Part shown: positions 22,851 to 28,121 of the stretch, in pieces
Numbering within the stretch: the first letter of the stretch is position 1
How the letters are laid out: each line of letters begins with the position of its first letter
Source: Escherichia coli
GTDB lineage: Bacteria > Pseudomonadota > Gammaproteobacteria > Enterobacterales > Enterobacteriaceae
NCBI RefSeq assembly: GCF_003334315.1
Contig: NZ_QOWR01000029.1
DNA: 52,432 bases
Reading direction: 5' to 3' (one strand)
The notes under the pieces: generated by a model
The model's input: only the letters and a program-made list of their open reading frames with translations
Database searches by the model: none
What the model was told of the DNA's origin: nothing
Made by a program: the position numbers and the translations under genes

Positions 22851-23133
22851 TTTACCTTACAACCTTCGTAAGACAACTTTGTGAACTTTGCACCGCCAGC
22901 GGCGATAAAAAGTAAAATGGCCCCCTTTCCAGGTGACCGTGTAATCTGAACTACCCTTTGGTATCTTCAGTGCCTGCCTGCAGGCTGAGGTGTTGCCCTT
23001 ACAAATGCAACAACGACATGGATTACAACACCCTCATAAACAAAGGGCAATCACCTGATCTAAGCTCTTACCTATGACAGTGATAGGTTATGCCTTTTAC
23101 TCGACTTTTGCACTGACTGAAAAGGACAAATTA

Positions 23134-23880
23134 ATGTTAAAAAAGATACTTTTACTGGCTCTGCTTCCTGCAATCGCCTTCGCAGAGGAACTTCCTGCTC
23201 CAGTAAAAGCGATTGAAAAACAGGGCATTACAATCATCAAAACATTCGATGCCCCCGGAGGAATGAAAGGTTATCTCGGAAAGTATCAGGATATGGGCGT
23301 CACCATCTACCTGACTCCAGATGGTAAGCACGCTATCTCTGGTTACATGTACAACGAGAAAGGTGAAAACCTGAGTAACACACTTATCGAAAAAGAAATT
23401 TACGCACCAGCCGGACGCGAAATGTGGCAACGGATGGAACAATCCCACTGGCTCCTCGACGGTAAAAAAGATGCGCCGGTCATTGTCTACGTCTTCGCCG
23501 ATCCGTTCTGCCCATATTGTAAACAGTTCTGGCAGCAGGCGCGCCCGTGGGTAGATTCTGGCAAAGTGCAATTAAGAACATTGTTGGTTGGGGTTATCAA
23601 GCCAGAAAGCCCGGCGACAGCAGCGGCAATTCTTGCCTCCAAAGATCCCGCAAAAACCTGGCAACAATATGAAGCCTCTGGTGGCAAGCTTAAGCTAAAC
23701 GTGCCTGCAAACGTAAGTACAGAGCAAATGAAAGTGTTAAGTGACAATGAGAAACTGATGGACGATCTGGGGGCAAATGTCACGCCGGCTATCTATTACA
23801 TGAGTAAGGAAAATACGCTACAACAGGCCGTGGGGTTGCCCGATCAGAAAACGCTTAATATCATTATGGGGAATAAATAA
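23134..23880 (+). CDS. dsbG: Periplasmic thiol:disulfide oxidoreductase DsbG
   Basis: 248 aa from [17 protein letters not shown] signal peptide. CPYC active site. The upstream 20-codon extension was rejected. Confidence 0.94.
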
Positions 23881-24088
23881 AAGGTAATTCATGGATGGTT
23901 GAACTATATCCCTGCTTTTCAACCATCCTAAAAAAGCATGAATTGCTCGCTCTGCCCTAAGTGGCTGTGCTATTTTAGAAAAACTTAATCCTGAGTTAAG
24001 CAAAAAAACATAATCAATAAAAATATATACGCAAAAAACATTGATTAAGTGAATATATCATGGAAGAAAAATATAACCGGAGTAGTGT

Positions 24089-24991
24089 ATGGCCAATCTC
24101 TACGACTTGAAAAAGTTCGACTTAAATCTTCTTGTCATATTTGAGTGTATTTACCAGCATTTAAGCATTAGCAAAGCTGCTGAATCACTATATATCACCC
24201 CATCAGCCGTGAGCCAGTCGTTACAACGCTTACGTGCGCAATTTAATGACCCTTTATTCATTCGCTCAGGAAAAGGTATCGCGCCGACGACAACAGGGTT
24301 AAATCTGCATCACCATCTTGAGAAAAATCTCAGAGGCCTTGAACAAACAATTAATATAGTCAATAAGTCCGAACTAAAGAAAAACTTTATTATCTACGGC
24401 CCTCAGCTCATTTCTTGCTCTAATAATAGTATGCTGATCCGCTGCCTACGGCAAGATTCCTCTGTCGAGATTGAGTGCCATGATATCCTCATGTCAGCAG
24501 AGAATGCTGAAGAACTGTTGGTTCACCGCAAAGCCGATCTGGTGATCACCCAAATGCCAGTGATCAGCCGTTCCGTCATTTGCATGCCATTGCATACGAT
24601 TCGCAATACTCTAATTTGTAGTAATAGGCATCCACGAATTACTGACAATAGCACTTATGAACAAATTATGGCAGAAGAGTTCACCCAATTAATATCTAAA
24701 TCAGCAGGGGTTGATGATATTCAAATGGAAATAGACGAGAGATTTATGAATCGCAAAATCTCATTTCGTGGTTCCTCTTTGCTGACAATCATTAATAGCA
24801 TTGCAGTTACAGATTTACTGGGAATAGTCCCCTATGAACTTTATAATTCCTACCGTGACTTTCTTAATTTAAAAGAGATAAAACTAGAACATCCGTTACC
24901 TTCAATAAAGCTTTATATTTCCTATAATAAATCTTCTTTAAATAATTTGGTGTTCTCCCGATTTATTGACCGTCTAAATGAGAGTTTTTGA
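24089..24991 (+). CDS. ybdO: LysR-family transcriptional regulator YbdO
   Basis: 300 aa. N-terminal HTH (ISKAAESLYITPSAVSQSLQRLR). The gene and its flanks are visibly AT-rich. Confidence 0.92.
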   Translation: MANLYDLKKFDLNLLVIFECIYQHLSISKAAESLYITPSAVSQSLQRLRAQFNDPLFIRSGKGIAPTTTGLNLHHHLEKNLRGLEQTINIVNKSELKKNFIIYGPQLISCSNNSMLIRCLRQDSSVEIECHDILMSAENAEELLVHRKADLVITQMPVISRSVICMPLHTIRNTLICSNRHPRITDNSTYEQIMAEEFTQLISKSAGVDDIQMEIDERFMNRKISFRGSSLLTIINSIAVTDLLGIVPYELYNSYRDFLNLKEIKLEHPLPSIKLYISYNKSSLNNLVFSRFIDRLNESF

Positions 24992-25137
24992 TATATAACT
25001 ACAGACAGTTACTATAACTTTCATCTATTTATTCACAGCGCGAATGAAAAATAAAACACTCTGCTTTACAGTGTTTACTTTATAATTAACAGACTTATCT
25101 CACTGATCACCCTGTAACGTTCAGAGAGCGTCTTCAG

Positions 25138-26358
25138 ATGTCTATTTATAAAATTCCTCTTCCGCTCAATATTCTGGAAGCTGCACGAGAGCGTATTACC
25201 TGGACACTCAACACCCTACCCCGCGTTTGTGTCTCATTTTCTGGCGGCAAAGACTCTGGTTTAATGCTGCATCTGACAGCCGAACTTGCCCGACAAATGG
25301 GCAAAAAAATCTGCGTTTTGTTTATCGACTGGGAGGCGCAATTCTCTTGCACCATTAACTATGTTCAGTCCCTGCGCGAGTTGTACACCGATGTCATCGA
25401 AGAGTTTTACTGGGTTGCGCTCCCGCTTACGACGCAAAATTCCCTTTCACAATACCAACCCGAATGGCAGTGCTGGGAACCTGATGTCGAATGGGTACGT
25501 CAACCTCCCCAAGATGCGATAACCGACCCTGACTTTTTCTCCTTTTACCAGCCAGGCATGACCTTCGAACAATTTGTACGTGAGTTTGCCGAATGGTTTT
25601 CACAAAAACGTCCGGCGGCGATGATGATCGGCATCCGTGCGGATGAGTCCTACAACCGTTTTGTCGCCATCGCCAGTTTAAATAAACAACGTTTTGCCGA
25701 CGATAAACCCTGGACTACGGCCGCACCAGGCGGTCATAGCTGGTACATTTACCCCATTTACGACTGGAAAGTGGCTGATATCTGGACCTGGTATGCAAAT
25801 CATCAAAGTCTCTGCAACCCACTGTATAACCTAATGTATCAGGCAGGCGTTCCTCTGCGTCATATGCGAATTTGCGAACCTTTTGGCCCGGAGCAACGAC
25901 AAGGATTATGGCTCTATCACGTTATCGAACCGGATCGCTGGGCTGCTATGTGCGCACGAGTCAGCGGGGTAAAAAGTGGCGGCATTTACGCCGGACATGA
26001 CAATCATTTCTATGGGCATCGGAAAATCCTCAAGCCAGAACATTTAGACTGGCAAGAATATGCATTATTGCTGCTCAATAGCATGCCGGAAAAAACAGCT
26101 GAGCATTACCGCAATAAAATCGCCATTTATTTGCACTGGTATCAGAAAAAAGGCATCGAGGTTCCACAAACCCAGCAAGGGGACATTGGCGCGAAAGATA
26201 TCCCCTCCTGGCGGCGGATATGCAAAGTTTTACTCAATAACGATTACTGGTGTCGGGCATTATCATTTAGCCCCACAAAATCGAAGAACTATCAGCGTTA
26301 TAACGAACGGATAAAAGGAAAACGTCAGGAATGGGGAATACTATGCAACAACGATTAA
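25138..26358 (+). CDS. ybdN: PP-loop ATPase of the PAPS-reductase/DndC-like family, function unknown
   Basis: 406 aa. PP-loop VSFSGGKDSG near the N-terminus. Matches recalled YbdN. Confidence 0.92.
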   Translation: MSIYKIPLPLNILEAARERITWTLNTLPRVCVSFSGGKDSGLMLHLTAELARQMGKKICVLFIDWEAQFSCTINYVQSLRELYTDVIEEFYWVALPLTTQNSLSQYQPEWQCWEPDVEWVRQPPQDAITDPDFFSFYQPGMTFEQFVREFAEWFSQKRPAAMMIGIRADESYNRFVAIASLNKQRFADDKPWTTAAPGGHSWYIYPIYDWKVADIWTWYANHQSLCNPLYNLMYQAGVPLRHMRICEPFGPEQRQGLWLYHVIEPDRWAAMCARVSGVKSGGIYAGHDNHFYGHRKILKPEHLDWQEYALLLLNSMPEKTAEHYRNKIAIYLHWYQKKGIEVPQTQQGDIGAKDIPSWRRICKVLLNNDYWCRALSFSPTKSKNYQRYNERIKGKRQEWGILCNND

Positions 26359-26960
26359 CGCAGGATTTAACGCAATTTCTCGCCAGCTTGCCGGAAGATG
26401 ATCGCATCAAAGCGATTAATGAAATCCGCATGGCGATCCATCAGGTTAGCCCCTTTCGTGAAGAGCCAGTGGATTGCGTTCTGTGGGTTAAAAACAGCCA
26501 ACTTATGCCTAATGATTACAACCCAAACAACGTGGCACCACCCGAAAAAAAACTGCTGCAAAAATCCATTGAAATAGATGGTTTTACCCAACCCATTGTG
26601 GTCACACATACGGATAAAAATGCCATGGAAATCGTGGATGGTTTTCACCGCCATGAAATTGGTAAAGGCTCATCATCATTAAAATTACGCTTAAAAGGTT
26701 ATTTGCCGGTGACCTGTCTGGAAGGTACGCGTAATCAACGCATCGCCGCGACTATTCGTCATAATCGCGCTCGTGGACGCCATCAAATCACCGCCATGTC
26801 GGAAATCGTCCGTGAACTTAGCCAGTTGGGATGGGATGATAATAAAATTGGCAAAGAGCTGGGAATGGACAGCGACGAAGTGCTGCGCCTGAAGCAAATT
26901 AACGGCCTGCAAGAGTTGTTTGCCGACCGTCAATATTCCCGCGCCTGGACGGTTAAATAG
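26331..26960 (+). CDS. ybdM: ParB/sulfiredoxin-fold (ParB-like nuclease domain) protein with C-terminal HTH, function unknown
   Basis: 209 aa. IVDGFHRHE (DGxHR motif), RHNRARGRH, HTH-like DNKIGKELGMDSDEVLRLKQ. Overlaps ybdN by 28 nt. An alternative start is at 26343. Confidence 0.9.
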   Translation: MGNTMQQRLTQDLTQFLASLPEDDRIKAINEIRMAIHQVSPFREEPVDCVLWVKNSQLMPNDYNPNNVAPPEKKLLQKSIEIDGFTQPIVVTHTDKNAMEIVDGFHRHEIGKGSSSLKLRLKGYLPVTCLEGTRNQRIAATIRHNRARGRHQITAMSEIVRELSQLGWDDNKIGKELGMDSDEVLRLKQINGLQELFADRQYSRAWTVK

Positions 26961-28121
26961 CTAAAGCTGGCGCAGGCGTTCAGCTGCTGCCAGCAACGTC
27001 GATTCCTTCTTGGCAAAACAGAGACGAATCAGTTTATGTGGGAAGGGATCGGCGCAAAACACCGACAGCGGAATCGCCGCTACGCCGTGCTCCTGCGTCA
27101 GCCACTGGCAAAACTCAACATCATCCAGGGTAGATACGGCGCTGTAATCCACCAGCAAAAAGTATGTACCTTCACACGGTAAAATCTCCAGCCGGCTTTC
27201 ATTTAAAGCATTCACCAGAATATCGCGCTTCTGGCGATAAAAGTCCGGTAACGCAAGATAATGCTCAGGTTCTGCACGTAGCATATCAGCAAGCGCCAGC
27301 TGTGCCGGGGTATTCACCGAAAAGGTCAGATACTGATGTACCTTGCGAATTTCGGCGCTGATGGGCGCTGGCGCAACACAATAACCCACTTTCCAGCCGG
27401 TCATATGATAGGTCTTGCCAAATGAAGAAACCGCCACTGCCCGCTCACGCAGCTGCGGATGCGCCAGCACACTGGCATGGCCCTGTTGTGAAAAGTTGAT
27501 GTGCTCGTAGACTTCATCGCTAATGACAAAAATCTCGTGCCCGGCGATCGCCTGCCACAAAGCGGCGAAATCAGCCTGCTGCCAGACAGTTGCACTGGGA
27601 TTATGCGGAGTGTTGAGGATCACCAGTCTGGTGCGCTCGCTTAATAATGCGGCAAATTCCTGCCAGTCAACGCGAAAATGCGGTGGTTGCAGTGCCATAC
27701 GCTTCACTATTCCCCCAGAAAGCGCGATGGCGGGGGAGTAACTGTCATAGCTGGGATCAAAACAAATCACTTCATCGCCATTGCGCACCAGTGCGGTAAT
27801 CGCCGCGTATAACGCTTCCGTCGCCCCTGCCGTTACGGTGATATCGCTATCGGCATCTGGTTGATAGCCATACAAACGTTCCGTTTTCTGAGCAATCGCC
27901 TCGCGCAAGGCCTGCACGCCGGTCATGGGCGCGTATTGGTTTGCCCCCTGGGCAACGTGGTACGCCAGCCGCTCCTGTAAATAGCGCGGACCATCAAAAT
28001 CAGGAAAGCCTTGCGACAGGTTAATCGCCTGGTGTTGCTGCGCCAGCGCGCTCATCTGGGTGAAAATAGTGGTGCCAAGTTGTGGAAGTTTGCTTTGTGG
28101 AATCAGAGGGTTATTTGTCAT
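26961..28121 (-). CDS. ybdL: PLP-dependent methionine aminotransferase
   Basis: 386 aa class-I aminotransferase. PLP lysine in SSFGKTYHMTGWKVGY. Its stop abuts the ybdM stop with 0 nt spacing. Confidence 0.94.
   Translation of the reverse strand: MTNNPLIPQSKLPQLGTTIFTQMSALAQQHQAINLSQGFPDFDGPRYLQERLAYHVAQGANQYAPMTGVQALREAIAQKTERLYGYQPDADSDITVTAGATEALYAAITALVRNGDEVICFDPSYDSYSPAIALSGGIVKRMALQPPHFRVDWQEFAALLSERTRLVILNTPHNPSATVWQQADFAALWQAIAGHEIFVISDEVYEHINFSQQGHASVLAHPQLRERAVAVSSFGKTYHMTGWKVGYCVAPAPISAEIRKVHQYLTFSVNTPAQLALADMLRAEPEHYLALPDFYRQKRDILVNALNESRLEILPCEGTYFLLVDYSAVSTLDDVEFCQWLTQEHGVAAIPLSVFCADPFPHKLIRLCFAKKESTLLAAAERLRQL

Follow-up and report, generated by a model that had tools for sequence, protein, structure and literature searches.

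The stretch of DNA analysed here (the window) comprises 52,432 nt of Escherichia coli (NCBI RefSeq assembly GCF_003334315.1, contig NZ_QOWR01000029.1), and within it we studied the citR-ybdN-ybdM locus, three open reading frames (ORFs) that lie in the same orientation between dsbG and ybdL (Table 1). An initial annotation, made from the sequence alone, had described a LysR gene directly upstream of ybdN, a PP-loop protein (YbdN) and a partner of the ParB/sulfiredoxin (Srx) fold (YbdM), and we recovered the three ORFs at the positions it gave, the 28 nt overlap between the last two, and the motifs on which it relied, namely VSFSGGKDSG in YbdN and IVDGFHRHE with a helix-turn-helix (HTH)-like C-terminus in YbdM. 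It had also set the locus in an AT-rich patch. The GC content was low in the two intergenic regions (32.2% between dsbG and citR, 33.6% between citR and ybdN) and in citR itself (38.4%), and was 47.5% in ybdN, 46.5% in ybdM and 51.9% in the whole window; by these per-segment values the patch consists of citR and its flanks (32-38%) and does not extend to ybdNM (47%).

The overlap between ybdN and ybdM suggests that translation of the two genes may be coupled, and junctions of this type overlap or abut also in phage AQ113 and in the loci L086 and L088. The start of ybdM is ambiguous: ATG 26331 is directly abutted by AGGA, and ATG 26343 (MQQRL) is preceded by GGGGA 5 nt upstream. The second is the start position used in the 205 aa Citrobacter YbdM orthologues, and its GGGGA is the better spaced of the two. 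Rfam gave no match within 23500-27500, a promoter and terminator scan returned no more sites than shuffled sequence did, and a search for parS-like repeats yielded three weak inverted repeats only.

Table 1. Features of the citR-ybdNM locus and its borders; positions are those of the window, and residues are those of the protein named
Feature	Position	Strand	Basis or remark
dsbG	23074-23880		Gene 5' of citR
dsbG-citR intergenic region, AT-rich, citR promoter/operator region	23881-24088	none	32.2% GC; CitR ChIP-exo peak upstream of citR-ybdNM (PMC9068703)
citR (ybdO), LysR-type repressor of ybdNM, 300 aa	24089-24991	+	NCBIfam CitR equivalog, Pfam, published deletion data
citR-ybdN intergenic region, candidate ybdN promoter and operator	24992-25137	+	33.6% GC; inverted repeat, TATAAT
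Imperfect inverted repeat in the citR-ybdN intergenic region, core AAACACT-N9-AGTGTTT	25043-25087		Abuts TATAAT 25081-25086
ybdN, predicted IbrA-family PP-loop ATP pyrophosphatase, 406 aa	25138-26358	+	Pfam, PHROG
YbdN PAPS-reductase-like domain	25225-25839 (residues 30-234)		
YbdN PP-loop SFSGGKDS	25234-25257		VSFSGGKDSG is residues 32-41
YbdN helical C-terminal DUF3440 domain	residues 237-406		
ybdN/ybdM overlap, 28 nt	26331-26358	+	16 nt if ybdM starts at ATG 26343
ybdM, IbrB-family ParB/Srx-fold protein, 209 aa	26331-26960	+	Sequence profiles
YbdM ParB_N core	26490-26657 (residues 54-109)		
YbdM DGFHR	26637-26651		IVDGFHRHE is residues 101-109
YbdM RHNRARG patch	residues 143-149		
YbdM HTH-like C-terminus	26787-26900 (about residues 153-190)		
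ybdL	26961-28121		Convergent, 3' of ybdM

The regulator, named in the initial annotation as a LysR gene, is no longer uncharacterised, since it had already been published as CitR, the repressor of ybdNM. YbdO matched the NCBIfam CitR equivalog NF047710 with 467.5 bits against a cut-off of 400 and contained the Pfam domains HTH_1 and LysR_substrate. Rodionova et al. (2022, PMC9068703) reported a CitR peak upstream of citR-ybdNM by ChIP-exo (chromatin immunoprecipitation followed by an exonuclease step), an increase of ybdN by log2 5.5 and of ybdM by log2 2.5 upon deletion of citR by RNA sequencing (RNA-seq), and control of citR by H-NS; according to these data, ybdNM is normally silent and repressed by CitR/H-NS, as had been supposed from its sequence. 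In the same study, deletion of citR raised the cys regulon by log2 2-3, including cysDNC, cysJI and cysAWU, and also the flagellar regulon. The lrhA and flagellar changes were common to a ybeF mutant, so the flagellar and cys changes in the citR mutant may be indirect. We rejected the flagellar and lrhA changes as a clue to function, since those of the unrelated ybeF mutant were identical.

YbdM was listed as a predicted transcription factor (PMC9068703), its protein level rose 29-fold, alongside that of the S-methylmethionine transporter MmuP, in cells carrying plasmid pUUH239.2, where it was termed "completely uncharacterized" (PMC8764527), and a ybdM knockout was among those surfacing in a peptide-resistance screen. 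In the literature that we searched on YbdN/YbdM, IbrA/IbrB, DUF3440 and PAPS reductase with ParB, no biochemical activity had been assigned to either protein, in agreement with the initial annotation. As the locus is annotated and its regulation published, ybdNM is not a new discovery.

YbdN contained the Pfam domains PAPS_reduct (PF01507, 5e-15; PAPS, 3'-phosphoadenosine 5'-phosphosulfate) and DUF3440 (PF11922, 2.6e-32), and matched phrog_2302 over its full length (5e-77), while YbdM matched phrog_2159 (4e-69). Compared with the IbrA- and IbrB-type paralogues of the E. coli 536 hly island, YbdN was 58% identical over 406 aa and YbdM 54% identical over 212 aa. On the basis of these PHROG matches and identities, YbdN and YbdM belong by sequence to the IbrA/IbrB family, a comparison made with the E. 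coli 536 island pair and not with the original ECOR-9 sequences. IbrA and IbrB, the paired immunoglobulin-binding regulators of E. coli ECOR-9, combine COG3969/DUF3440 with an IbrB-like ParB; together they reportedly activate silent prophage eib genes, a result attributed to Sandt et al. in 2002 and said to be the only biology reported for the family.

The pair had initially been likened to DndC/DndB as well as to IbrA/IbrB, and only the second likeness stood. YbdN scored 22.2 bits with the DndC equivalog TIGR03183 (cut-off 290.4) and 21.8 bits, over a partial stretch only, with the PADLOC DndC model; the DndB models of PADLOC and Pfam matched neither YbdM nor the 33 members of its family, with which DndB shares the DGxHR motif alone. 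A proposed kinship with BrxP had to be dropped too, as the PADLOC BrxP model scored 18.5 bits over the PP-loop region only and none of the BREX genes PglZ, BrxC and BrxL was found in the neighbourhoods. With the NCBIfam PAPS_reductase model TIGR02057, YbdN scored 34.8 bits against a cut-off of 254.2.

In an alignment of 36 YbdN family members, the PP-loop and the substrate-binding motifs were invariant across phyla, and the residues conserved in the family included G37, K38 and S40 of the PP-loop, D64-x-E66, GIRxDESxxR and many tryptophans. The same alignment contained no invariant cysteine, and C112, C246 and C372 were fixed in a closer subset of the family only; this excludes CysH-type thiol and DndC-type iron-sulfur/cysteine-dyad mechanisms as family-wide features. 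In fold searches with a structural model of YbdN, the matches were confined to the N-terminal PAPS-reductase core of about 172 of the 406 residues, with flavin mononucleotide (FMN) adenylyltransferase and the ATP sulfurylase CysD as the top ones; for each of the nearest folds the target is a phosphate or sulfate oxygen, which receives AMP or is otherwise acted on. The DUF3440 domain had no solved counterpart in these searches; one uncharacterised viral COG3969 homologue aligned to the YbdN fold across its whole length. Sequence searches of the Protein Data Bank (PDB) returned no close solved relative of YbdN or YbdM.

YbdM alone scored 24.5 bits with ParB_N (PF02195), just below the gathering threshold of 26.3, while 28 of 33 family members matched it (E <= 0.01), and the family profile reached the Noc/ParB N-domains in the PDB at 1.3e-6 as well as SbnI and SerK, which bears out the ParB/Srx membership first proposed. 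Secondary matches were to the ParB-methyltransferase families phrog_498 and PADLOC MTase_II. Mean column identity among YbdM relatives across phyla was 51%, unusually high for mobile-element proteins. Residues D103, G104, H106 and R107 were invariant, as were the RHNxARG patch and a large part of the HTH-like segment GMxxDExxR at the C-terminus, and the HTH-like stretch aligned across the entire family. In the profile alignment, DGFHRH occupied the position of the canonical ParB cytidine triphosphate (CTP) motif, GERRxRA. As regards the marks of a canonical partition ParB, GERRxRA was absent from YbdM and no ParA gene was present in the locus.

Using a 3.2 kb query, which matched strain CP53 with 100% identity, and a coverage of at least 80%, we found the citR-ybdNM locus in 5321 of 5426 complete E. 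coli genomes (98%). Identity of the locus among genomes was bimodal, with about one third (1769 of 5423) in the 80-90% band, and this divergent allele class was compared through one representative (L084 4186-5234 against window positions 24089-25137). The two citR alleles shared 80% nucleotide and 88% protein identity; their synonymous divergence (dS) was 1.85 and their ratio of nonsynonymous to synonymous divergence (dN/dS) 0.036, and the citR-ybdN intergenic region was 69% identical. Between the same classes, ybdN was 94% identical (dN/dS 0.038), ybdM 97% (0.074), and dsbG, ybdL and hcxA 96% (0.01-0.08). Divergence was thus concentrated in citR and its downstream intergenic region, in which the TATAAT at 25081-25086 was kept in the other allele and the inverted repeat at 25043-25087 was not. 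Taken together, these sequence comparisons indicate that purifying selection maintains ybdNM as a functional pair of core genes and that it is not foreign DNA in decay, at variance with the horizontally acquired DNA suggested in the initial annotation.

A citR orthologue stood directly upstream of ybdN in Enterobacter, Klebsiella and Kluyvera loci. In Citrobacter sp. Awk 4 (L006 8901-11224, compared with window positions 23074-25138) dsbG abutted ybdN with no citR between them, and because of this absence citR looks like a later AT-rich addition before an older ybdNM pair. Two strains differed at the locus itself. In E. coli ET120 (L085 6190-7775), an ISKpn26-associated deletion from the 5' end of citR to entF removed ybdNM and the genes between; in E. 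coli ECGI0523, a GTDB representative (L004 9084-9854), citR was split in the called ORFs (67 aa and 166 aa), which suggests that the repressor may be disrupted in this strain. E. coli also carried many further paralogous copies: across 5421 genomes we counted 8028 places, with up to 5 per genome, and 96 of these places were on plasmids. IbrA/IbrB-type paralogues lay beside hlyCABD in a pathogenicity island of E. coli 536 (L095 8960-10821) and beside iroBCDN on a Klebsiella-type virulence plasmid of strain elppa9 (L096 7960-9821), with insertion sequence (IS) remnants on both sides in each case.

The YbdN family comprised 1693 clusters at 50% identity (E <= 1e-3). A genome scan with an alignment of a 13-sequence subset gave 80 loci, in Proteobacteria, Bacteroidota, Bacillota, Verrucomicrobiota, Lentisphaeria, the candidate phyla radiation (CPR) and Streptomyces. 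Pairing was counted, with our own ORF calls and an iterative profile search, at 58 genomic and three phage loci (61 in all) that do not belong to the E. coli-type enterobacterial group: in about 45 of them the next gene downstream, on the same strand, was YbdM-like and coded for 166-253 aa, and most of the non-paired remainder were shadow-ORF artefacts of the ORF calling. We rejected a YbdN-YbdM fusion as proof of a complex; the sole candidate, P0362, was a 281 aa fragment that may be an artefact.

The cassette was also common in viruses. By tblastn, a YbdN-type gene was present in 224 phage records, with hosts including Flavobacterium, Mycobacterium, Streptococcus and Arthrobacter, and a scan of IMG/VR yielded at least 404 viral contigs with a YbdN homologue. 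A co-oriented ParB-like gene was found within ±3 genes in 77 of the 78 viral contigs analysed, often on both sides of the YbdN homologue, and the neighbouring genes on viral contigs serve replication and recombination (DnaD-like loader, exonuclease, NinG, helicase and primase). In actinophages the pair stood just upstream of terminase. Fusobacterium phage phiFN37 carried a PAPS-reductase-like and ParB pair (L094 5001-6789) with a helicase two genes on and, 3 kb from the pair, a ParB-like gene beside a homologue of queuine tRNA-ribosyltransferase (TGT) in a DpdB/DpdA-like arrangement (L094 9748-11033).

Certain partners recurred next to the pair. A SNF2-family helicase was encoded at position -1 or -2 in 18 loci, and also in phages AQ113 and PY7; one chromosomal island, lying between housekeeping genes, had the order HTH_3, an 86 aa protein, SNF2, IbrA and IbrB. 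A divergent GNAT-fold protein occupied position -1 in 17 loci (Pfam GNAT models matched 4 of the 17), a GNAT gene followed the pair in Arthrobacter phage Kovu, and in P0298 a GNAT-like segment was fused C-terminally to the YbdN homologue. In 5 loci position -1 was taken by a 137 aa protein (phrog_26647), which was N-terminally fused to the YbdN homologue in P0243. Examples of these small GNAT-fold and 137 aa proteins upstream of the pair are found at L056 9595-9999 and L031 9624-10037.

At 54 loci outside the enterobacterial group of E. coli type we examined 149 neighbours, and none of the Pfam or PADLOC families occurred more than 4 times in this set. The recurrent neighbour families of these loci included no sulfur-metabolism and no restriction-effector family, and neither the conserved neighbour clusters nor the recurrent Pfam families included a DndA/IscS-type desulfurase, DndD or DndE. 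The Cohnella locus L088 lay near DUF3800 and a Cas_VVA1548 nuclease-like gene. The initial annotation had proposed a possible nucleic-acid-modification or conflict-related role and had named ordinary sulfur metabolism in the surroundings of homologues as a finding that would speak against its proposal; the survey found no such surroundings, and no nuclease, effector or defence family recurred among the 149 neighbours either. Its broad outline of an under-described, silent nucleic-acid-related module with a PP-loop/ParB pair of the IbrAB kind survived, and what it had added on kinship with Dnd and BREX did not extend beyond the fold. The context instead points to a DNA-acting cassette that travels with phages and further kinds of mobile element.

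Taken together, we tentatively favour, at somewhat less than an even chance, the view that ybdNM is a DNA-directed adenylating modification module that is kept silent in E. coli. The IbrA/IbrB family, a self-contained cassette of two genes that stems from phages or mobile elements, most likely acts on DNA. DNA is the putative substrate in view of the obligatory ParB/Srx-HTH protein encoded by the overlapping gene, the recurrence of SNF2 and GNAT genes nearby, the setting in phage replication modules and the habit of ParB_N domains of assisting DNA modifiers. For the chemistry, the formation of a complex and the biological outcome, we infer the following course as the most likely one. YbdM, with its ParB/Srx nucleoside triphosphate (NTP)-binding domain and HTH, would bind DNA and recruit or activate YbdN, which would use ATP to adenylate an oxygen of the DNA, either of a backbone phosphate or of a base carbonyl, so that pyrophosphate is released and the position is activated for substitution. 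The resulting covalent mark would alter how the DNA is read, for instance by protecting it from restriction or by relieving silencing, and in other lineages the SNF2 translocase, the GNAT-fold protein or the 137 aa protein would join the pair. An extended form of this proposal, which we regard as rather doubtful, holds that the PP-loop enzyme of the family, which lacks Dnd-type cysteines and would be led to its target by a ParB-like NTPase, adenylates DNA as a step towards a covalent mark of a kind not described so far, by which phages, virulence islands and plasmids would escape restriction or silencing, and that the K-12 copy is complete, silent and can be switched on by deletion of citR.

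Several observations weigh against a DNA-modifying YbdNM. Neither a modification of E. coli K-12 DNA due to ybdNM nor an activity of its products is on record; the closest structural relatives of YbdN all act on small molecules and not on polymers; and the ParB/Srx relatives reached by the YbdM profile include the small-molecule kinases SerK and SbnI. Beside the pair there was no conserved gene that could supply a donor group, for example one for a cysteine desulfurase or an amidotransferase. The AlphaFold2 (AF2) model of YbdM, made with 14 close orthologues, had a predicted local distance difference test (pLDDT) score of 49.9, and because of this poor model the fold assignment of YbdM rests on sequence profiles. 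Finally, the rise of the cys regulon on deletion of citR could mean that the products of the pair touch sulfur pools and not DNA.

Two alternatives compete most seriously with a DNA-directed modifier. The main rival, which we consider unlikely, is a regulatory complex without DNA chemistry, in which YbdM would be a ParB-type anti-silencer or transcription factor comparable to VirB and KorB, spreading on DNA and relieving H-NS silencing, with YbdN as its nucleotide-dependent cofactor or loader. The reported activation of eib by IbrAB fits such a purely regulatory ParB-type complex and, equally well, an epigenetic or anti-silencing outcome of modification. Paralogues on horizontally acquired, typically silenced DNA (the 536 hly island; virulence plasmids beside iro) count in favour of this rival, as do the HTH and the NTP-binding-type motif of YbdM and its listing among predicted transcription factors (PMC9068703), although it hardly explains why a mere cofactor should keep an invariant catalytic PP-loop and substrate-binding motifs or why lytic phages should carry the pair in replication modules, and the recurrent SNF2 and GNAT partners suggest enzymology on DNA. 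The second rival, in our judgement also improbable, is a small-molecule or nucleotide pathway in which YbdM would be a ParB/Srx-type phosphotransferase and YbdN an adenylyltransferase, the two making or consuming an activated nucleotide-like compound, such as a precursor of DNA hypermodification before replication, a signal or a donor resembling PAPS or adenosine 5'-phosphosulfate (APS). The conserved HTH-like C-terminus of YbdM, the linkage to a SNF2 helicase in 18 loci and the lack of conserved metabolic neighbours all stand against this pathway, even though FMN adenylyltransferase and CysD are the top structural matches of YbdN and the free serine kinases SerK and SbnI come within reach of the YbdM profile. 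Two expression results also agree with it, namely the induction of cysDNC, cysJI and cysAWU on deletion of citR (PMC9068703) and the joint rise of YbdM and MmuP (PMC8764527), of which the first, like the flagellar response, may be an indirect effect in view of the ybeF mutant.

Two further readings, a defence island and sulfur metabolism, were both rejected on the content of the neighbourhoods. Modification-type anti-phage defence, comparable to Dnd, Ssp or BREX type 4, is highly unlikely: the weak similarity of YbdN to DndC and BrxP and the placing of some loci, such as that of Cohnella, in regions resembling mobile elements or defence islands are outweighed by the lack of a recurrent nuclease or effector and of any defence family in more than 4 of the 149 neighbours, by the frequency with which phages carry the cassette (224 records, plus at least 404 viral contigs), and by the status of ybdNM as a core pair in E. 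coli and not a variable island. A CysH-type PAPS reductase of ordinary assimilatory sulfur metabolism is barely credible. This is the role implied by the RefSeq product name, by the PAPS-reductase fold and by the virome literature, in which the DUF3440 clade is treated as cysH; however, TIGR02057 is missed by a wide interval (34.8 against 254.2 bits), there is an extra DUF3440 domain of 170 aa, the lack of an invariant cysteine leaves no counterpart of the catalytic C-terminal cysteine, and the YbdN homologues were paired with ParB and never seen with cys genes in the surveyed neighbourhoods. In papers on viromes and prophages, PAPS-reductase genes are entered as sulfur auxiliary metabolic genes of the cysH type or under "host metabolism", and one of these papers mentions the DUF3440 clade (bioRxiv 10.1101/2021.01.05.425418; PMC11318856; PMC10434257). 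For this clade the label is made doubtful by the ParB partner and by the absence of any invariant cysteine, and we argue that the common "PAPS reductase / cysH" name of the DUF3440 clade is wrong.

The question has some reach, as ybdN and ybdM still belong to the E. coli K-12 genes without a known activity and yet are present in 98% of complete genomes under purifying selection, and as the cassette is common in phages and is also harboured by a virulence island of E. coli and by plasmids of the virulence type, where its annotation is PAPS reductase and it is classed with the sulfur auxiliary metabolic genes. If the pair is a DNA-directed modifier, these metabolic interpretations would be wrong, the virome "cysH auxiliary metabolic gene with DUF3440" would be a DNA-modification gene, and a new epigenetic or anti-restriction chemistry would be at hand. 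The published CitR repressor makes the activity of YbdNM directly testable in K-12.

Compared with known systems, YbdNM is closest to IbrA/IbrB, with which it has in common the PAPS_reduct plus DUF3440 architecture, the gene order, the overlap and the PHROG families; the IbrA/IbrB paralogues ride on prophage-like islands and plasmids, whereas YbdNM is the core chromosomal copy under a dedicated LysR repressor, CitR. The VirB/KorB-type regulators have the ParB fold, are encoded on horizontally acquired DNA and turn on genes that had been silenced; they have the GERRxRA CTP motif and no enzyme partner; YbdM, in contrast, has DGFHRH at that position and an enzyme partner. CysH, CysD and FMN adenylyltransferase share their fold with YbdN over about 172 of 406 residues, but YbdN lacks the catalytic cysteine and has an extra helical domain and an obligatory ParB partner. 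DndC/DndB, which have roles at DNA in phosphorothioation (PMC10853773), and likewise SspD and BrxP, resemble YbdNM in combining a PP-loop protein of the PAPS-reductase clade with a ParB/Srx partner of the DGxHR type, whereas YbdNM has no conserved cysteine cluster or dyad and no DndA/D/E, cysteine desulfurase, PglZ or BrxC neighbours, and carries DUF3440 instead. In 7-deazaguanine modification, DpdB is a ParB-like NTPase that serves as the DNA-engaging helper of the DNA-modifying DpdA (PMC12839542). DpdA/DpdB and the ParB_N-methyltransferase fusions offer a ParB-like helper as in YbdM, with a transglycosylase or a methyltransferase as the enzyme where YbdN is of the PP-loop type.

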